From Minisyncoccota bacterium (GTDB lineage Bacteria > Patescibacteriota > Minisyncoccia > UBA6257 > 2-01-FULL-56-20), in assembly GCA_035541855.1 (NCBI GenBank), contig DATKMM010000022.1:1-12873 (forward strand): DNA of 12,873 bases, given 5' to 3'. Numbering within the stretch: the stretch's first letter is position 1; each line of letters starts with the position of its first letter. The position numbers were made by a program, and so were the translations under genes. Shown here in pieces: positions 4,766 through 12,009 of the stretch. The notes under the pieces were generated by a model. It was not told where the DNA came from, did not search any database, and saw only the letters and a program-made list of their open reading frames with translations.

Positions 4766-5161
4766 TTAACAAGTCCCGATACTGCCCGAAGCGCCGAGGA
4801 AGCTCGCCACGATCAACGGGATCGCGCGGGCCAAGAGCGCCACGCCGACCGCGATAGCCGCATAGAGCAGCGTGCTGCCGGCACCCTTCACCTTCTCCGG
4901 ATCGCCTGCGGCGGTCAAATATTTGAACGCGGCGACGATAATGAAGATGACGGCGAGCGCGACCAGGAAATAGAACAGCCAGCTGAAGACGACGCAGACC
5001 GTATTGAGGACGCCCTGAATGCTCGTGATCTGGCCCTGCGGAACCGTGCTCTGTACTGGAGGAGCCGGCTGGGGGATGTTCTGCGCCGATGCCAAGACCG
5101 GCAACGCCAGGGACAAGATCGGAAGCCCGAACTCCTTCGCGAAATTGATTGCTTTTTTCAT
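4766..5161 (-). CDS. TrbC/VirB2-like pilin paralog 1 (secreted two-helix membrane protein, 131 aa from ATG 5161)
   Basis: The signal peptide MKKAINFAKEFGLPILSLALPVLASA is followed by a Q/P-rich variable segment. The conserved core is VCVVFSWLFYFLVALAVIFIIVAAFKYLTAAGDPEKVKGAGSTLLYAAIAVGVALLARAIPLIVASFLGASGSIGTC, two TM helices around a short loop with a C-terminal Cys. It resembles VirB2 in the …NNICTFI… and …ASFLGKTLTGGG elements. The track start at 5167 is a GTG two codons upstream of the ATG. Confidence 0.8.
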   Translation of the reverse strand: MKKAINFAKEFGLPILSLALPVLASAQNIPQPAPPVQSTVPQGQITSIQGVLNTVCVVFSWLFYFLVALAVIFIIVAAFKYLTAAGDPEKVKGAGSTLLYAAIAVGVALLARAIPLIVASFLGASGSIGTC

Positions 5162-5217
5162 AAACACGTAGGATTTTCGACCTTTCAGGATGCCGTTTCA
5201 GTATACCATTTCCAACG

Positions 5218-5676
5218 CTAACACGCCAGGAAGCCCCCTCCCCCGAAGCCGCCTCCGGACGAAGAACCCGCGCCGAGGAAACTCGCGACAATGCTCGGAA
5301 TGGCTTTCGCAAGGAGTGCCACCGCTACCGCGATAGCCGCATACATCAGCGTGTTGTTGGCGCTCTTCACCTTTTCGGCCTCGCCCGAGCTCGTCAGATA
5401 CTTGTAAGCGCCGACCACGACGAAGACGACCGCCAAGACGATAAGACCGTAGAACATCCAGCTGAAGACGGTGCAGCCGAAGTTGAGCACGCTTTGGGTC
5501 GAAACGAAACCAGAAGCATACGGCACGTTCGTGCCGGTCGGCAGCTGCGGCTGGGCGCCAACCGTCCCGCCGCTCCCCGTGCCGCCCGTTGGAGCAAATG
5601 CTCCAGCCGAAAGAGGTATCGCCAAAGACAAAATCGAAATGCCGAATTCTTTTATAAACCGTTTTATCTTTTCCAT
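5218..5676 (-). CDS. TrbC/VirB2-like pilin paralog 2 (152 aa from ATG 5676)
   Basis: MEKIKRFIKEFGISILSLAIPLSAGAFA aligns with the paralog 1 signal peptide. A G/T/S/P-rich variable segment follows. The core is GCTVFSWMFYGLIVLAVVFVVVGAYKYLTSSGEAEKVKSANNTLMYAAIAVAVALLAKAIPSIVASFLGAGSSSGGGFGGGGFLAC. The 22-nt block ccgtagaacatccagctgaaga is shared with paralog 3. The track start at 5706 would add 10 non-homologous residues. Confidence 0.8.
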   Translation of the reverse strand: MEKIKRFIKEFGISILSLAIPLSAGAFAPTGGTGSGGTVGAQPQLPTGTNVPYASGFVSTQSVLNFGCTVFSWMFYGLIVLAVVFVVVGAYKYLTSSGEAEKVKSANNTLMYAAIAVAVALLAKAIPSIVASFLGAGSSSGGGFGGGGFLAC

Positions 5677-5699
5677 AAGAATTTTAGTATTCCGACCTT

Positions 5700-6041
5700 T
5701 TAACATGCCAGGAAGCTTCCGCTCGTCGCCTTCGCGCCAAGGAGGCTTGCCACGATCGCCGGAATTCCCTTCGCGAGAAGCGCCACCGCGATAGCAATGG
5801 CGGCATATAGGATCATCTTGTTCGCCTTACTGACTTTTTCCGCCTCGCCGTTCGCCGTCGCATAATTATATGCGGCGACCACGATCATGATGAGCGACAG
5901 GACGATGAGCCCGTAGAACATCCAGCTGAAGATCGTGCACATGAACTGCAATAATTCCTGGGTAGTGGTGATGGGCGGTTTAAAGCTCAGAGAGGAACCG
6001 CTGCTAGTAGCCTGTGCAAATGCCTTGGAGACGAATGTCAT
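5700..6041 (-). CDS. TrbC/VirB2-like pilin paralog 3, lacking a canonical signal-peptide N-region (113 aa from ATG 6041)
   Basis: MTFVSKAFAQATSSG… is followed by the core MCTIFSWMFYGLIVLSLIMIVVAAYNYATANGEAEKVSKANKMILYAAIAIAVALLAKGIPAIVASLLGAKATSGSFLAC. The ATG sits 1 nt after paralog 4's TAATAA double stop. The 28-codon upstream extension in the track overlaps paralog 4 out of frame and is not hydrophobic. Confidence 0.6.
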   Translation of the reverse strand: MTFVSKAFAQATSSGSSLSFKPPITTTQELLQFMCTIFSWMFYGLIVLSLIMIVVAAYNYATANGEAEKVSKANKMILYAAIAIAVALLAKGIPAIVASLLGAKATSGSFLAC

Positions 6042-6045
6042 TTTA

Positions 6046-6450
6046 TTATTTACCGCCGAATAGATTTTTAATGATGGACACGATGCCGCTCGCCAAGACC
6101 ACCACGGCAAAACCGATGGCCGCATACATCAATGTCTTTCGACCATTTGCGAACTTCTCGGGACTGCCGCCTGCCGTGATCATCTGGAATCCGCCGATGA
6201 GCGCCATAACGGCAACCAGCGGTATGGCGATCATGACCAAAAAATTGGAGATCGCCGCCACAACAGCCTGAAAGTTATTGATAGAACCGAGAGGATTGGG
6301 GAGGGAAACGGAGGTCTGGCTTCCAGTTCCACTCGCATTACCGCCGCCAATCGTACCCTGCTGCGCAGATGCGTACCGCACCAAACCAATTCCGAACAAC
6401 CAAGCGGCCACCCCGACCCTTCGCAATAGCTTTTCCGGCATTGGATTCAT
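6046..6450 (-). CDS. TrbC/VirB2-like pilin paralog 4 (divergent, no C-terminal Cys)
   Basis: The signal peptide is M(NPM)PEKLLRRVGVAAWLFGIGLVRYASA, then a G/S/T-rich segment. The core is FQAVVAAISNFLVMIAIPLVAVMALIGGFQMITAGGSPEKFANGRKTLMYAAIGFAVVVLASGIVSIIKNLFGGK. Candidate starts are ATG 6450 or 6441, or GTG 6471, which overlaps the preceding gene's stop as GTGA. Confidence 0.7.
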   Translation of the reverse strand: MNPMPEKLLRRVGVAAWLFGIGLVRYASAQQGTIGGGNASGTGSQTSVSLPNPLGSINNFQAVVAAISNFLVMIAIPLVAVMALIGGFQMITAGGSPEKFANGRKTLMYAAIGFAVVVLASGIVSIIKNLFGGK

Positions 6451-6467
6451 TATAGCAGATTCCCGCT

Positions 6468-6983
6468 TCACTGGGGCTGGAAGGCGCCGGCGGCACAGAA
6501 GCTCAACCCGAGGTTCACGCCGGCGTAGTCCGGATCAACATCTATCGTCGTCCCGACCTTGACGTTCAACTTGCACGCATCGGCCTGCGAAATACCAAGC
6601 GCCTGAAGGAACGCCTGTTCCGCCTCGGCGCGGACGGTCTCGAACGGCGCGGCTTCGATGAGAATATTGAAACTGCTGTCGGGCGCATAATAAGTAATGT
6701 TGTAAGTGCTGGTCTGCTCGATAAGGATGGCCGTATGGTCGGCGCTTACCTGCCGGGTGGTGTTATAGAAATTGTTCATGACGACGCCTCCCTCCGGCGT
6801 CCCGATGGTCAGCGTCGCCCCGGTTGGCGGCGTGAATGGCGCCGTACCGGTCGCAACCGGCGGCAAGGTTCCCGTCGTTCCGCCGCCGCCCGCGGGCGAC
6901 GACCCGCCGCGAAGAACGAAGAACAGCGCCCCAGCGGCGATGGCGATGACTACAACGGTTCCGATGATGATTGTTTTTCTCAT
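6468..6983 (-). CDS. Membrane-anchored extracytoplasmic protein of unknown function (171 aa)
   Basis: An N-terminal TM anchor TIIIGTVVVIAIAAGALFFVL is followed by a G/T/P-rich linker (SSPAGGGGTTGTLPPVATGTAPFTPPTGATLTIGT) and a roughly 110-aa globular region with two Cys. It lies 6 nt after the fusion gene, overlaps paralog 4's GTG, and shows good high-GC codon bias. No family was recognised. Confidence 0.65.
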   Translation of the reverse strand: MRKTIIIGTVVVIAIAAGALFFVLRGGSSPAGGGGTTGTLPPVATGTAPFTPPTGATLTIGTPEGGVVMNNFYNTTRQVSADHTAILIEQTSTYNITYYAPDSSFNILIEAAPFETVRAEAEQAFLQALGISQADACKLNVKVGTTIDVDPDYAGVNLGLSFCAAGAFQPQ

Positions 6984-6989
6984 GTTTGT

Positions 6990-7802
6990 TTATGACCCGC
7001 AGGCCTTCCGGGTGGCCGGCCCCCACAAGCTCCAGTTGGTGCCGCTCTTGGAGAGCAAACACGCTTCCGTGATATTGGTCGTCGGGTTCTTCGCGGCGGC
7101 CAGGCATTGCTGGTAGAGCGACTGGTTCGTCACGGTGCAGTGGGGATTACTGCCGGTATAACGATTGCTGAACGCGCTCGGGCAGTTGAGCGTCTGGCCG
7201 GTGGTCGGGTCCGATATGGTGTTCGCGGAAAGGTTGATCTGGAAGAGCCCTATGGACGCGTAATTGCCGTCGTCGCATTTGTCCCCTTGCGCGTTCGGGT
7301 TGCCGCTGCTCTCCACGTTGCAGACCCCGCCGGCCTTCTGGGCATTATTGCTCCCCATGCAGCTACCCTGCAATTGCGCCGTACTGCACGGGCCACTGGA
7401 AGGCGCCTGGCATCTCCCGCCGGTACCGCTGCCCCCTCCCGTCGTACTGCTCCCGTTCCCTCCACCGATCCCATTGACCGCGCCCTGCGGCAGGGCGGAA
7501 AGCAACGGCAGCGAGCAGCTGGTCAGGCCAGGATTGATGGTATAGAGGATCAGGTAGGCGCCGGCGAGCAGGAGAATGCCGATAAGCGCGCTCCAGATCC
7601 AGCTTCTCCCTTCGCTTTGGCGGCTGGCATTTCCGGCCGACGTGGCGTACTTGAGCCCCCCATATACTATAGCGCCGAACGCCAGAATGCCCGCAGCCAG
7701 CAGGGCGAAATAATAGAAATTCACGATCCATCCACAGGGGCCCGCGGAAAGCGGGATGCCGCCGGGGAGGTTGGTGCCGATGGTGATCGCTGCCTGGTTC
7801 AT
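6990..7802 (-). CDS. Fusion protein: N-terminal TrbC/VirB2-like two-helix module plus C-terminal Cys-rich lysozyme-like/lytic-transglycosylase (VirB1/GH23-GH22-like) domain
   Basis: Residues about 20-90 (PCGWIVNFYYFALLAAGILAFGAIVYGGLKYATSAGNASRQSEGRSWIWSALIGILLLAGAYLILY) align with the pilin core, including the Cys before TM1 and the KY[LA]T[SA][AS]G loop. The C-terminal ~180 aa contain CNVESSGNPNAQGDKCDDGNYASIGLFQINLS. This resembles the catalytic Glu-Ser and GLMQ(I)N motifs of SLT/VirB1 and the ES…DGSTDYGILQIN of C-type lysozyme. There are about 13 Cys in all. Confidence 0.75.
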   Translation of the reverse strand: MNQAAITIGTNLPGGIPLSAGPCGWIVNFYYFALLAAGILAFGAIVYGGLKYATSAGNASRQSEGRSWIWSALIGILLLAGAYLILYTINPGLTSCSLPLLSALPQGAVNGIGGGNGSSTTGGGSGTGGRCQAPSSGPCSTAQLQGSCMGSNNAQKAGGVCNVESSGNPNAQGDKCDDGNYASIGLFQINLSANTISDPTTGQTLNCPSAFSNRYTGSNPHCTVTNQSLYQQCLAAAKNPTTNITEACLLSKSGTNWSLWGPATRKACGS

Positions 7803-7806
7803 GTCA

Positions 7807-8271
7807 TTACAGGGTGCATGCGGCTGTTCCGAAACCGCCGATCAATCCCGTGAGATGGAAGAATTGGACGACAGTCGAAACCAGGACCCAAGCGCAAAGC
7901 ACGATGACCACGCCCCAGACCGCTCCCGTGATCGTCTTCTTGCCCCGCCCGACCATTTCGGGACTGGCGCCGGCGAGGATGATCATGATGCCGCCGACCA
8001 GGATCAGGATCGGGGCGATGATCCACAGGATGAACGCGATCACGAAATAGATGACGTTCGCCATCTCCGCGACGAAGTCGCACAGATTACTGCATGCGGG
8101 AAGCGAGGCCGTCCCCGAACTGCCGGTCCCGGTGCAGACGACGAGCGGCCCGTTCAGGATGGTCGGGTCGAACACGTTGCTCTTGACGGGCGCATGGCCG
8201 GCGGCGGCAACGTATGGCAGCGCCAGCAGGGCGATGGCGAAAATCAACTTGATGGCCAGCGGATGTTTCAT
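7807..8271 (-). CDS. TrbC/VirB2-like pilin paralog 5 (divergent)
   Basis: The signal peptide is MKHPLAIKLIFAIALLALPYVAAAG. A variable Cys- and Gly-rich segment follows. The core is CDFVAEMANVIYFVIAFILWIIAPILILVGGIMIILAGASPEMVGRGKKTITGAVWGVVIVLCAWVLVSTVVQFF, with a Gly-rich tail GLIGGFGTAACTL. Its loop AGASPEMVGRGKK is homologous to the loop in paralogs 1-4. Confidence 0.75.
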   Translation of the reverse strand: MKHPLAIKLIFAIALLALPYVAAAGHAPVKSNVFDPTILNGPLVVCTGTGSSGTASLPACSNLCDFVAEMANVIYFVIAFILWIIAPILILVGGIMIILAGASPEMVGRGKKTITGAVWGVVIVLCAWVLVSTVVQFFHLTGLIGGFGTAACTL

Positions 8272-8280
8272 GGCGTTGCC

Positions 8281-9585
8281 TTACTGTCCCCTCATCACGG
8301 TGGTTATGGCGTTCTGCGCGACGCCAAGCGCGTTCGCGGCATTCGACGAGCCGTTCAATACGTTCTCAATGGCCGCATCCATGATCGAATCGATCTGGGC
8401 GTCGTCCGCCTCGTACCACGCCCGCGCCGTGAGCGCCTGGGCCGCGAACGTCCCATAGGTCGGGTCGGTGAGAGCCGCGGCGATGAGACTTCGTCCGGCA
8501 GGCGGCTGGGCCATATCCTTAAGATATACCTCTTCGGCCGCCGGGGTAGTGGTCATATAAATGATAAATTGCCACGCGGCATCAACTTGGCCCCGTTTGG
8601 AAACCGCCAGGCCCTGATAACTTGGATAGTTCACGGCGATCGTGGCGCTGGCCGGCTGCAGCATGGGCGCCACGCCGTAGTCCAAAAACGGCGCCTTCTC
8701 TTTGATCTCCGACATCGCCGATGCATAATCGAACACGATCGCCGTCTTGCCGGCCAGGAAATTTTGCATGGAATCCCCCATCGCGTCGTTCCAGGTATAG
8801 TTCGGCGAGGCCGAATTCGCGAACTGAAGGTAGAAATTAAAAGCCGCCAAACCCGGATTGCTGCCGTCCGGGGCGACGGAAGCGAACGTGGCGGCTGTCC
8901 CATCGTTGCTCACCATATTCGTCCCGTTCTGCAGCATGAGCAGGAAAAGGATGTCCGGCGCATCCGCGATGCTGGCTCCCGAACCGCCGAGCGCGACCGC
9001 CGCCTGCGTGATCTGTCCTTGGGCGTTCAGCGTCCGGAGTTTCGGGATATCGGAATCCAGGTCGTTCCATGTTTTCGGCGGATATACGATGCCGGCCGAA
9101 TCGAACAGGTCTTTGTTGTAATACATCGCGAGCGTGTCGAGCGAAAGCGGCAGGGCATAAACCTGGCCGCCAGCGACGAAATTCTGGGTCACCACCGTCG
9201 GGAAGTCGCCCGCGACCGTTGCCGCCGTGAACGCGGGAGTAAGCGTCGCCGGCGCCGGCGCCATCACCGAATACCATTTCGGCAGGTCGTGGTCGCCAAC
9301 CTCGAAAATGTCCGGGCCGGTACCCGCCGCGAACGCCTTCAGGAGGTCGCCTGCGTACGTCGCCGGATCGTCCTGCAGATAATCGACCGTCACGTTCGGC
9401 GCGACCGCCTTGTACGCCGATGCCATATCGGAAAAGACGGACTTCGGGTCGGTGCCCCAAACCGTCAGCGTGATCTTCTGCGTATTTCCCGTCGGGCGCA
9501 GGCCGAAATAAACGGCGGCAACGACAGCCAAAACCAGCACGACCCCTGCCGCCACGATGACAATTTGTTTTTGGGTGAATTTCAT
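8281..9585 (-). CDS. ABC-transporter-type extracellular solute-binding protein, family 1 (sugar/MalE-like), TM-anchored; no cognate permease or ATPase in the window
   Basis: An N-terminal signal anchor IVIVAAGVVLVLAVVAAVYFGL is followed by ITLTVWG, AAGTGPDIFEVGDHDLPKW (compare MalE ATGDGPDIIFWAHDRFGGY), LPLSLDTLAMYYNKDLF…PPKTWNDL and FDYASAMSEIKEKAPFLDYGVAPM. The ATG at 9583-9585 directly abuts the gyrA stop codon at 9586-9588. Confidence 0.85.
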   Translation of the reverse strand: MKFTQKQIVIVAAGVVLVLAVVAAVYFGLRPTGNTQKITLTVWGTDPKSVFSDMASAYKAVAPNVTVDYLQDDPATYAGDLLKAFAAGTGPDIFEVGDHDLPKWYSVMAPAPATLTPAFTAATVAGDFPTVVTQNFVAGGQVYALPLSLDTLAMYYNKDLFDSAGIVYPPKTWNDLDSDIPKLRTLNAQGQITQAAVALGGSGASIADAPDILFLLMLQNGTNMVSNDGTAATFASVAPDGSNPGLAAFNFYLQFANSASPNYTWNDAMGDSMQNFLAGKTAIVFDYASAMSEIKEKAPFLDYGVAPMLQPASATIAVNYPSYQGLAVSKRGQVDAAWQFIIYMTTTPAAEEVYLKDMAQPPAGRSLIAAALTDPTYGTFAAQALTARAWYEADDAQIDSIMDAAIENVLNGSSNAANALGVAQNAITTVMRGQ

Positions 9586-12009
9586 TTACACCACGATCGT
9601 TCCCGCCAGCCGGTCGCCGCTCTTCAGGTCCATGATCCGCACTCCTTGCGCCGCGCGACCCGTCGTCCGCACCGTTCCAAGTTCCATCCTGATCATCTGT
9701 CCTTTCGCGGAAAGCGCGAATACCTCCTTCTCTCCCGTGATCACGTGCGCGGAAACCACCGGCCCGGTCTTTGGCGTGATCTCGGCGGTCTTGATCCCCG
9801 ACCCGCCGCGACCCTGTGTTTTGTATTCCGCCAGCGAGGTCTGCTTGGCGAACCCGTGCTCCATGACCACGAACAGCTTCGCATCCTCTCCTTTGATAAT
9901 TATATCAAACCCGGCGACCTCATCGTTCTGCTTCTTCAGTTTGATCCCGCGCACCCCTGCCGCCGTCCGCCCCATCGGGCGCACCTGCTTCTCGTCGAAC
10001 CGGATGGATTGGCCCTGGCGCGTCGCGAGCACCGCCTGGTCGGTGCCGCCCGTGAGCTCCGCCCACTTCAACTGGTCGCCCTTTTTGAGCTTGATGGCGA
10101 TGATGCCCGTCCGGCGGATGTTCTCGAAGTCGGCGAGCGGGGTCTTCTTGATGTTCCCCTGCTTCGTCACCATCATCAGGTATTTCTTTTTCTCCCCTTT
10201 GGCCGAATAGTTCACGATCGCGGTCACCCGCTCATCGGCCGGCAATTCGAGGAAGTTCTGGATCGCTTTGCCCTTGGATATGCGCGTCGCCTGCGGAATT
10301 TCGTGGACCTTCGTCTGGAACACGCGGCCGCGGTCCGTGAAGAAGAGCACGTTGTCGTGCGTCCGCGCGCTGAAGAAGTGCGACAGGAAATCGTCTTCCG
10401 CCACGTCGGAACCGATCAGCCCCTTGCCTCCCCGCTTCTGCGCCTTGAACGTGTCCGGCGGCAGGCGTTTGATGTAGCCGCCGGCCGAGACCGTGACGAT
10501 CGCGTCCTCGTCGGTGATCAGGTCCTCGTCGCTCACCGCCTCTACCGCGCGCGCCACGACCTGCGTCCGGCGCTCGTCGCCGTATTTCTCCTTGAGCTCC
10601 TTCACTTCGTCCTTGATGATCTTCAATATCTTCGCCGGGCTCTTCAGGATGAGCGACAGTTCCTCGATGAGCGCCCGCTTCTCCTTCAGCTCGTCGTCTA
10701 TCTTCTTATGCTCCAGCGCGGCGAGCGTTTGCAGCCGCATCTCGAGGATCGCGGTCGCCTGGACGTCGCTCAGTTTGAAAAGCTTCACCAGGTTCGCATG
10801 CGCCTCCTCTTTGTCCTTCGATCTCTTGATGGTCGCGATCACGCGGTCGATCGCATCCAGCGCCTTCGCCAACCCTTCCAATATATGGGCGCGCTCCTCT
10901 GCTTTTTTGAGGTCGAACTGCGTCCGCCGCCGCACGATCTCCTTCCGGTGCGCGATATATTCGGTAATGAAGTCGCGGATCGGCAGCAGGCGCGGCTCGA
11001 TGCCGTTCACGAGCGCGATCATGTTCAGGTTGAAATTCTTCTCGAGGTCGGTGTGCTTATAGAGGAAGTTCAAAACCTTCTGCGGCGGCACGTCGTTCTT
11101 GAGCTCGATCACGATGCGCATCCCCTCCCGGTCGGATTCGTCCCGCAGGTCCCGGATGCCCTCCACCTTCTTTTCAGTGTGCAGCTCGGCAATGGTTTTG
11201 ATGAGCTCCGATTTGTTCACCTGGTACGGGATCTCGGTCACCACGATATCGAACTGTTTGCCTGCCTTGTTCTCCACGATCTCCGCCTTGGCCCGCGCGA
11301 GGATGGCGCCCCGTCCCGATATGTAGGCTTCGCGGATCGCCTTCGCGTCGTAGATAATGCCGCCCGTCGGGAAATCCGGACCCTTGATGAACTGCAGAAC
11401 ATCCTCGTTCGTGGCGTCCGGATTGTCGGCGATATGCAGGATCGCGTCCGCGACCTCGTTCAGGTTGTGCGGCGGGATGCTCGTCGCCATGCCGACCGCG
11501 ATACCAAGCGATCCGTTCAAAAGCAGGTTCGGCAATTTCGCCGGCAGGACCCGCGGCTCCTCGCGCGTCGCGTCGTAGTTCGGGGTCCAATCAACCGTGT
11601 CCTTCTCGATGTCCCCCATCATCTCGCTCGCGATAGCGGAAAGCTTCGCCTCGGTATACCGCATCGCGGCCGGAGGGTCGCCGTCAACGCTCCCGAAGTT
11701 CCCCTGTCCTTTCACCAACGGATAACGCAGTGAAAAATCCTGCGCCAGGCGCACCAAGGTGTCGTAGATCGCCGAATCGCCGTGCGGATGATACCGCCCC
11801 ATCGTGTCGCCGACCACCGTGGACGACTTCCTCGTCTTCGCGTTCGAGGTCAGGCCGCTCTCCCACATAGCCCACAGCACGCGGCGGTGCACCGGCTTCA
11901 GGCCGTCGCGCACGTCGGGAAGCGCGCGCGCGACAATGACCGACATTGCGTAATCAAGGTATGACTCGCCAAGTTCCTTTGTGATCTCTCTTTTTTCCGA
12001 GTTTGCCAT
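9586..12009 (-). CDS. gyrA: DNA gyrase subunit A
   Basis: [28 protein letters not shown] and the [21 protein letters not shown] are present. The active-site Tyr is in [10 protein letters not shown]. The GyrA-box QKRGGKG precedes the beta-pinwheel repeats. At 807 aa the protein is full length. Confidence 0.97.

Follow-up and report, generated by a model that had tools for sequence, protein, structure and literature searches.

A gene on the minus strand of contig DATKMM010000022.1 (assembly GCA_035541855.1, Minisyncoccota bacterium), at positions 6990 to 7802, encodes a single protein of 270 residues in which a VirB2-like pilin module is followed by a lysozyme-like domain. The window, i.e. the whole stretch of DNA analysed, is the entire contig, 12,873 nucleotides long. 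Very likely, the protein is a modular pilin associated with a type IV secretion system (T4SS), holding a peptidoglycan-cleaving domain on a tether. The open reading frame (ORF) is intact, begins with ATG and is the sole long ORF in its frame; an identical protein is already present in NCBI, JGI and ENA, and the NCBI entry names it a hypothetical protein from a 'Candidatus Paceibacterota bacterium' metagenome-assembled genome. Among the 120 best homologues listed, 89, from independent samples and sources, also have both halves in one gene, and so do 117 loci found in a GTDB scan with one genome per species, all of them in Patescibacteria lineages. The covalent union of the two modules, proposed by an earlier reading of the sequence alone (hereafter the sequence-only reading), is therefore upheld. 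The tests by which that reading could have been refuted all turned out in its favour. A frameshift or a chimeric assembly joining a pilin gene to a hydrolase gene, the pitfall named by that reading, might be suspected in a contig from a metagenome-assembled genome, and in a copy that has no signal peptide. Since the single ORF recurs in 117 species genomes and at least 89 homologues, and since the junction (Asn90-Pro91 and the linker) is conserved, we reject this explanation, whose probability is negligible.

The pilin module and the lysozyme-like domain

The gene and the parts of its product, all on the minus strand, are as follows:
6990..7802: fusion gene, pilin::lysozyme-like, 270 residues (ORF list, Pfam PF18896 and PF18895; stop codon 6990-6992)
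7731..7802: residues 1-24, short N-terminal tail, predicted extracellular and uncharged (no K, R, D or E), with an L-P-G motif and Cys23
7656..7730: residues 25-49, first transmembrane helix (TM1) of the hairpin (hydropathy; hhalign to TM1 of the neighbouring PF18895 pilins)
7605..7655: residues 50-66, positively charged loop LKYATSAGNASRQSEGR, predicted cytoplasmic (composition, conservation, positive-inside rule)
7536..7604: residues 67-89, second transmembrane helix (TM2) (hydropathy peaking at residue 77; hhalign to the neighbouring pilins)
7413..7535: residues 90-130, flexible linker and its junction with TM2, with Cys96 and Leu98-Pro99 (conservation, composition)
6993..7412: residues 131-270, disulfide-rich lysozyme-like domain (Pfam SLT_3), 140 residues, 10 Cys
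7308..7313: Glu164-Ser165, closing helix 154-165 on its C-terminal side and predicted to supply the catalytic acid (invariance, model helix, hhalign register)
7233..7256: Ser183-x-Gly-Leu-Phe-Gln-Ile-Asn190, beta-sheet motif of the substrate groove (conservation, translation check, register to hen lysozyme)

The first ~90 residues had been likened to the neighbouring pilins, and for the hairpin this was confirmed: a profile of the N-terminal module (27 homologues) aligned with that of 24 simple pilins, taken from the locus in the window and four syntenic loci, with an hhalign probability of 98.3% (E 1.2e-14) over 73 columns covering TM1, the loop and TM2. The KY.T.AG loop, part of the same claim, is common to three of the five neighbouring pilins (YKYLTSSG, FKYLTAAG, YNYATANG), and the other two deviate from it. 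In the fusion, the loop LKYATSAGNASRQSEGR contains three K/R and one E and is of the same type as that of the simple pilins. Gly48 in TM1, Tyr52, Gly57 and Asn58 in the loop and Ala72 in TM2 are near-invariant among homologues, Gly75 in TM2 is invariant, and Pro13 of the L-P-G motif is kept in 85 of 89 sequences. By the positive-inside rule, the hairpin would be inserted with its basic loop in the cytoplasm and both ends outside, which is the topology of VirB2/TraA pilins.

Right after TM2 (window 7515-7535), Asn90-Pro91 is invariant in all 113 carriers of the module, whatever the C-terminal domain. It is frequently followed by an L-P-x-L-[ST]-[GA] motif, with Leu98-Pro99 present in ~80 of the 113, and this motif is not found in simple pilins. 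The region might cap the helix, serve for docking or be a place where the protein is processed. The linker stretch consists of G, S, T and N at 63%.

The protein has 12 Cys (residues 23, 96, 131, 139, 148, 161, 176, 207, 222, 233, 248 and 268), 11 of which fall in the C-terminal ~180 residues, where the sequence-only reading had counted about 13. Cys23 and Cys96 co-occur perfectly, being both present in 13 sequences, both missing in 76 and never found singly; for this reason, a disulfide between them is predicted, which would staple the outer ends of the hairpin. The simple pilins (4766-6125 and 7807-8271 in the window, and those of L001, L002, L004 and L005) carry a Cys before TM1 and another at their extreme C-terminus (..LAC, ..GTC, ..ACTL). 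Both are present in 19 of the 24, neither in the four of the 6046-6471 paralogue type, and the remaining one has an internal pair. This suggests a disulfide tying the two outer ends of the simple-pilin hairpin, as a putative non-covalent-backbone counterpart of the head-to-tail cyclisation of T-pilin and TrbC.

The N-module profile, run against PDB sequences, found no VirB2/TraA pilin, only generic transmembrane hairpins, and one neighbouring pilin matches TrbC PF04956 with an E-value of only 0.009. The name 'VirB2-like' is used here in the sense of the PF18895 label given in Pfam and the literature (PMC12102498, PMC12857230, PMC10633639).

The C-terminal domain matches PF18896 (SLT_3, 'lysozyme like domain') over residues 155-260 with 32.8 bits for a cut-off of 27 (E 9.9e-8), i.e. 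above the gathering threshold. The peptide CNVESSGNPNAQGDKCDDGNYASIGLFQIN, in which the sequence-only reading recognised the active-site motifs of GH23 lytic transglycosylases and C-type lysozymes, spans residues 161-190, i.e. window 7233-7322, and for 7233-7313 the translation was verified. Glu164-Ser165 is invariant in 89 of 89 homologues, at identities spanning 34-70%. In the groove motif, G185, L186, F187 and Q188 are each kept in 89 of 89, and S183 and N190 in 88. An AlphaFold2 model of the domain, computed on a 55-sequence alignment, reached a pLDDT of 94.7 and a pTM of 0.88, and its helix H29-40 is residues 154-165, ending at Glu164-Ser165. Structure comparison, one of the checks that had been advised, matched the model to alpha-lactalbumin (7.5), to Slt, EtgA, Cj0843c, DslA, MltE, MltC and phiKZ gp144 (6.6-6.9) and to Rpf (5.8). 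Enzymes of the lysozyme superfamily or near relations of them, for instance chitinases, account for all of the first 50 fold matches and for most of the 60 listed. The predicted fold is thus that of the lysozyme superfamily, with GH22 C-type lysozyme as the closest solved fold. With Foldseek against PDB, the matches are all C-type lysozymes and lactalbumins, none of them significant.

Membership in the two families that had been invoked is a different matter, as Pfam scores support neither. PF01464 (SLT) gives 13.2 bits for a cut-off of 21.3 (E 0.066), over residues 159-192 only, and PF00062 (C-type lysozyme) gives no match at E<=1. What stands of the proposed likeness is the fold, the Glu-Ser pair and GLFQIN; the family is PF18896. 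As in C-type lysozymes (GH22) and GH23 proteins (Slt70, MltE, EtgA, VirB1), the lysozyme fold contains a helix-end Glu followed by Ser, and a G-L-x-Q-I-N strand. In particular, the GH23 combination of a helix-end Glu-Ser with a G-L-M-Q-type motif is present and invariant (E164-S165, G185-L-F-Q188). The differences are the lack of a significant sequence match, a Ser in place of Asp52, predicted disulfide pairs that are not of C-type, and the lack of A-Y-N-x-G, which is absent from both the sequence and the family consensus. A-Y-N-x-G is motif III of family 1 lytic transglycosylases.

In the only register to hen lysozyme obtained, an hhalign alignment of 2.5% probability, Glu164 stands opposite Glu35, GLFQIN opposite GILQIN, and Ser183 at Asp52. 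Of the GH22 Glu35/Asp52 pair, only the Glu therefore has an equivalent, insofar as this low-confidence register is right. GH23 lytic transglycosylases use a single catalytic Glu and have Ser or Ala at the Asp52 position. Glu164 would be the catalytic acid and, because a Ser sits at the position of lysozyme Asp52, the chemistry would be nearer to that of a single-acid lytic transglycosylase than to that of a retaining C-type lysozyme. Co-loss of Cys across homologues points to the pairs 139-161, 148-248 and 176-222, a pattern that differs from that of C-type lysozymes; like the active-site geometry, these pairs are predictions. We conclude that the lysozyme-fold domain is a family of its own, a demonstrable member of neither GH22 nor GH23.

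Distribution, domain exchange and linkage to type IV secretion

Among the 89 homologues with both halves, PF18895 is matched in 80 and PF18896 in 70 (E<=1e-3). A search with the domain profile returned 1,230 cluster representatives (50% identity level) among 1.84 billion. The lysozyme-like domain is nearly always C-terminal, and the pilin module lies upstream of it in 103 of the best 150 domain matches. The search for orthologous fusions in related genomes, also advised by the sequence-only reading, was thus fruitful: the 117 GTDB species belong to Parcubacteria/Paceibacterota, Moran-, Doudna-, Kuenen-, Nomura- and Liptonbacteria, with some bins auto-labelled otherwise. In certain fusion variants (365-380 residues), a PKD domain separates the hairpin from the lysozyme domain, and others have Cys-rich, beta-defensin-like N-terminal extensions (~400 residues); these variants with extra modules are P0036, P0049, P0052, P0053 and P0061, and P0071 and P0079. 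NCBIfam and PHROGs, searched with the fusion and with its variants, yielded no useful match.

The pilin module is also found with other partners. In 29 close homologues, the N-module is 63-79% identical over 36-66% of the query, and the C-terminal domains are unrelated. Five contigs place these swapped variants in the same syntenic gene, in the order gyrA, solute-binding protein (SBP), pilin, pilin::X, partner gene, then 3-4 pilins; the array is followed, in four of these contigs, by SPFH, RadC, a two-component system and FtsEX. One type of X is NlpC/P60-CHAP-like: it matches Pfam CHAP (E 0.003) and, as a profile, the endopeptidase CwlO (E 0.005), in an alignment where the catalytic Cys and His coincide. 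A second is a peptidase of the LAS/M15 fold that has kept its His/Asp/His catalytic residues. A fourth C-terminal type, counting the lysozyme-like domain, is characterised by HxxGxKAD...HWD (P0078, P0096 and others) and its profile found no match in PDB; the H-x6-D...H spacing is only a lead that it may be LAS-like. Since three different wall-cleaving folds are borne by one carrier, peptidoglycan is likely their common target.

To describe the surroundings of these genes, neighbouring genes were clustered over 86 related loci, within 10 kb on either side. A VirB4-type ATPase was found in 24 of the 86, in every case sharing the strand of the fusion-related gene and separated from it by a distance of 1-5 genes (Pfam matches P-loop_TraG, 102.6 bits, AAA_10 and CagE_TrbE_VirB), and PrgI/VirB3 in 21 loci. 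Hence, in a quarter of the related loci there is same-strand linkage to VirB4 and PrgI/VirB3, and to a weak VirB6 match. The operon of L021 is a good illustration: a VirB6-like protein (weak), a 304-residue protein, PrgI, a 228-residue protein, VirB4, two proteins of 219 residues, one of 887 residues, pilin::SLT_3, the partner and a beta-propeller-like protein. Both Pfam domains of the L021 fusion are above threshold.

Ten of the 24 VirB4-linked loci have, directly after virB4, a gene for a larger protein with the same domain at its C-terminal end. These proteins, mostly of 870-1,124 residues (two are of 330 and 636), have a large charged N-terminal region and two hydrophobic segments, and do not match the pilin profile. 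In 20 of the 24, no simple pilin was detected nearby. In P0125-P0198 the lysozyme-like domain ends proteins of ~850-1,190 residues with a low-complexity charged N-region, whose genes come right behind virB4 and are followed by the same partner gene. The large lysozyme-domain proteins have a basic loop and no signal peptide, which makes their topology puzzling (loci L050, L053, L061, L064, L065, L067, L072, L084 and L085).

The partner gene, which in the window encodes a protein of 171 residues, is present in 65 of the 86 loci and immediately downstream of the fusion in 62 of 79, in pilin-array and in VirB4-operon contexts alike. A profile of the partner matched nothing in Pfam or PDB. A role as immunity protein or inhibitor specific for the lysozyme was ruled out, as the partner is homologous (36-54% identity) whatever the type of hydrolase. 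It is probably a core partner of the fusion.

The locus and its neighbours

The genes surrounding the fusion in the window, all on the minus strand, are:
9586-12009: gyrA
8281..9585: membrane-anchored solute-binding protein (SBP_bac_1, Pfam 94 bits), heading the gyrA-SBP-pilin array in this lineage
7807..8271: simple pilin lying upstream of the fusion and translationally adjacent to it (PF18895, 29.8 bits; Pfam, alignment)
6468..6983: partner gene, a 171-residue bitopic membrane protein with two invariant Cys (conservation across loci)
4766..6471: four further PF18895 pilin paralogues, 6046-6471, 5700-6125, 5218-5706 and 4766-5167 (Pfam, alignment)

The minus-strand string therefore reads gyrA, SBP, a PF18895 pilin, the fusion, the 171-residue membrane protein and four more PF18895 pilins, and the ATG of the fusion lies 4 nt past the stop of the upstream pilin gene. 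Counting the fusion, the pilin array has six members, and it is syntenic in five other contigs. Genes around the locus include the housekeeping genes gyrA, RadC, FtsEX and RF-1. Rfam, tRNA and promoter/terminator scans of the window gave no signal above chance.

The SBP gene occupies the same position in L001, L002, L004, L005 and the P0103 contig. Its product has an N-terminal membrane anchor, and no ABC permease or ATPase gene adjoins it. Its co-transcription with the pilins hints at a tie between the array and nutrient capture. The longest ORF of the pilin paralogue 5700-6125 overlaps the upstream pilin gene by 80 nt, and its N-terminal region (..KIYSAVNNKMTFVSKAFAQ) shows no hydrophobic signal peptide that convinces, whereas the L004 and L005 orthologues have one. 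The gyrA of a syntenic relative (L004, 4198-8010) encodes 1,270 residues, among them an intein that includes a LAGLIDADG endonuclease (Pfam Intein_splicing, LAGLIDADG_3). Finally, the plus strand has an ORF of 1,325 residues (7756-11733) that runs antisense to the pilin, SBP and gyrA genes; it is spurious and owes its existence to the high G+C content. A simple greedy ORF caller was misled by it, so that the numbers of SBP and gyrA neighbours given for related loci are minima.

Role of the fusion and alternative explanations

In the mechanism that we propose, the VirB2-like hairpin would carry a disulfide-stabilised lysozyme-fold peptidoglycan glycosidase on a ~40-residue linker, at an extracellular C-terminus. 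Because its hairpin and loop are those of pilins, the pilin-handling machinery should take the fusion too, and the pilin module would bring the enzyme to the site where that machinery operates. The linker would let the domain reach the wall, where it would cut glycan strands of the producer within its reach and make a gap for the channel or pilus. Wall cleavage would thereby be placed where the channel or pilus emerges. That the enzyme acts on the producer's own wall, at the base, has in our eyes an even chance of being right. The best explanation overall, which we hold with moderate confidence, is that the modular pilin is the VirB1 equivalent of the Patescibacterial T4SS or pilus. A role in association with the machinery is favoured by the non-pilin form encoded next to virB4, by the loci without simple pilins and by the precedent of VirB1-like proteins in monoderms.

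This precedent is close in several respects. The VirB1-type hydrolases of monoderms (PrgK of pCF10, TraG of pIP501, TcpG, CwlT) are likewise membrane-anchored, extracellular and encoded with VirB4/VirB3/VirB6-like genes (PMC12102498), and their repertoire, a lysozyme/SLT-like glycosidase, a CHAP/NlpC-P60 peptidase and a metallopeptidase, is the one found across the orthologues here. They differ in having a single N-terminal transmembrane anchor, whereas here two helices form the anchor, a VirB2-like hairpin with homology to the pilins encoded alongside it. They also combine catalytic domains, whereas here each protein has one, whose type is exchanged between lineages. In addition, the glycosidase here is the Cys-rich SLT_3 and not PF01464, and in the lineage of the window its gene is not beside virB4.

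A second comparison is with Southlakia epibionticum, where SEML1_0014-0019 are likewise tandem divergent PF18895 pilins in a cluster with hydrolases. Patescibacterial T4SS clusters contain essential pilin arrays (PMC10633639; PMC12857230), and that of S. epibionticum is essential for epibiotic growth (PMC10633639; PMC12102498; PMC12857230). Its essential T4SS cluster has separate lysozyme-like/Cys-peptidase and M15B-like proteins beside six PF18895 pilins (PMC10633639, supplement), which are the same enzyme classes as those fused to the pilin module here. Pilins and hydrolases are thus separate proteins in S. epibionticum, whereas here one member of the array bears the hydrolase covalently. 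In a 2025 survey of 3,035 Patescibacteria genomes, which used other VirB1 profiles, most genomes with VirB2 had no recognisable VirB1 (PMC12102498); proteins of the fusion type would have been counted there as VirB2.

Several observations weigh against this interpretation. PF18895 on the fusion itself (residues 25-88) scores 22.7 bits (E 1e-4), under its cut-off of 26.6; the threshold is passed by the relatives L021 (26.8 bits), P0107 (37) and P0051 (46). The signal peptide is absent from this copy, with an in-frame stop 14 codons upstream of the ATG. Most homologues have a cleavable signal peptide ending in ..AFAQ directly before the corresponding segment (ATISINPNIPG), so that the fusion starts at what would be their mature N-terminus; P0009 does likewise, and P0002, P0086 and P0098 are also without a clear hydrophobic signal peptide. 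The uncharged 24-residue tail could cross the membrane without one. On the enzymatic side, the register to hen lysozyme has the low probability given above, the sequence profile of the domain retrieved noise from all PDB sequences and no solved lysozyme or SLT, and the enzymatic activity itself is a prediction. Pilins apart, neither the 12.9-kb window nor the 10 kb around the locus in the five syntenic Paceibacteria contigs holds anything T4SS-like, be it VirB4, VirB6 or VirD4, and for the window's own lineage the putative link to the T4SS is by homology only. Finally, the swift exchange of enzymatic domains among close relatives is more like that of effectors directed at a host or rival than that of a housekeeping space-maker.

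The last point leads to an alternative that we hold as possible and no more than tentative, in which the fusion is a minor pilin in a T4SS-type filament, at its tip or sparsely on its shaft, and the enzyme cuts the wall of a host or prey at the contact site. The cut would open the way for an uptake or transfer channel of the epibiont, and lineages would swap the hydrolase to suit the wall of their host. This reading is kept alive because the carrier is highly conserved, sits in a pilin array and exchanges its enzymatic domains like an effector. The fusion indeed lies among five simple pilins with the same hairpin and loop, the N-module is much more conserved (70-79% identity) than a mere anchor would need while the C-domains are non-homologous, and a locus that swaps lysozyme, CHAP-like, M15-fold and fourth-type domains resembles polymorphic effector systems. 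No type-specific immunity gene was found, and none is expected for a foreign target. As the C-termini of F-type pilins are on the pilus exterior, a linker-borne domain is sterically conceivable. But no simple pilin is detected near 20 of the 24 VirB4-linked loci, which leaves no evident carrier filament, and the same domain also occurs on a non-pilin anchor with two transmembrane segments beside virB4. No pilus of this type is known to have been visualised in a monoderm, and an exposed enzyme would meet the producer's own wall as well. In favour, again, bacteria of the candidate phyla radiation (CPR) live obligately as epibionts and cannot grow on the host without their T4SS (PMC10633639). In its bolder form, this idea is of a monoderm T4SS-type pilus with interchangeable wall-degrading 'warheads' (lysozyme-like, NlpC/P60-like, M15-like) on one minor-pilin module, drilling the host wall, and we consider that unlikely. 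If true, the pilus would be an enzymatic drill for an epibiotic feeding or transfer connection, and the warhead type would track the wall chemistry of the host.

Two other explanations dispense with wall opening for a secretion machine. Alpha-lactalbumin is a non-catalytic homologue of lysozyme, and the domain, with Ser183 at the Asp52 position, might be a glycan-binding or adhesion module giving the array a wall- or sugar-binding tip. This is very unlikely: Glu164-Ser165 shows the invariance expected of a catalytic acid in spite of the wide range of identities, lytic transglycosylases manage with a single Glu and Ser/Ala at that position, and the alternative domains have kept their catalytic residues (Cys/His for NlpC/P60, His/Asp/His for LAS). 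An ordinary autolysin of growth or division, using a pilin-derived hairpin as an anchor and having no tie to secretion or pilus, would fit with a locus set among housekeeping genes and with the lack of a T4SS ATPase in the window or within 10 kb in the syntenic contigs. It is, if anything, more improbable, given a position fixed in a pilin array or a VirB4/PrgI operon across 86 loci, a conserved partner gene and the strong conservation of hairpin and loop. We therefore retain as best explanation the modular pilin acting as a VirB1 equivalent, which probably supplies the 'missing' wall-opening enzyme of the Patescibacterial T4SS apparatus.

The sequence-only reading did not recognise the architecture as a described one. 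This is true of the literature searched, in which there is no mention of PF18896 or of a pilin-hydrolase fusion, specialist surveys being silent on such a fusion; in databases, the two Pfam families already stand side by side in the precomputed annotation of dozens of homologues. The architecture is thus catalogued, and what is new is the mode of tethering of a T4SS-associated wall hydrolase, on a modular VirB2-like pilin. Among filament proteins, modular type IV pilins such as PilB of Streptococcus sanguinis (PMC8179133) follow the same principle, a functional module on the C-terminus of a pilin found among ordinary pilins. They belong to an unrelated filament, with a class III signal peptide, a single N-terminal helix and modules that are adhesive and not muralytic, so that the likeness is no more than an analogy.

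Patescibacteria (CPR), whose way of life is that of obligate epibionts, account for much of the diversity of bacteria, and the T4SS and the pilin array are essential in the only species in which this was examined by genetics. The fusion family offers a testable answer to the questions of how a VirB2-type pilus crosses a monoderm wall and why most of these genomes seem to be without VirB1: in many lineages, the hydrolase would be hidden in a gene that surveys score as 'pilin'. It also provides a natural modular VirB2-like pilin and a compact disulfide-rich lysozyme family without characterised member, and its orthologous loci with exchanged enzymatic domains may be mined for correlations with host range or wall chemistry.

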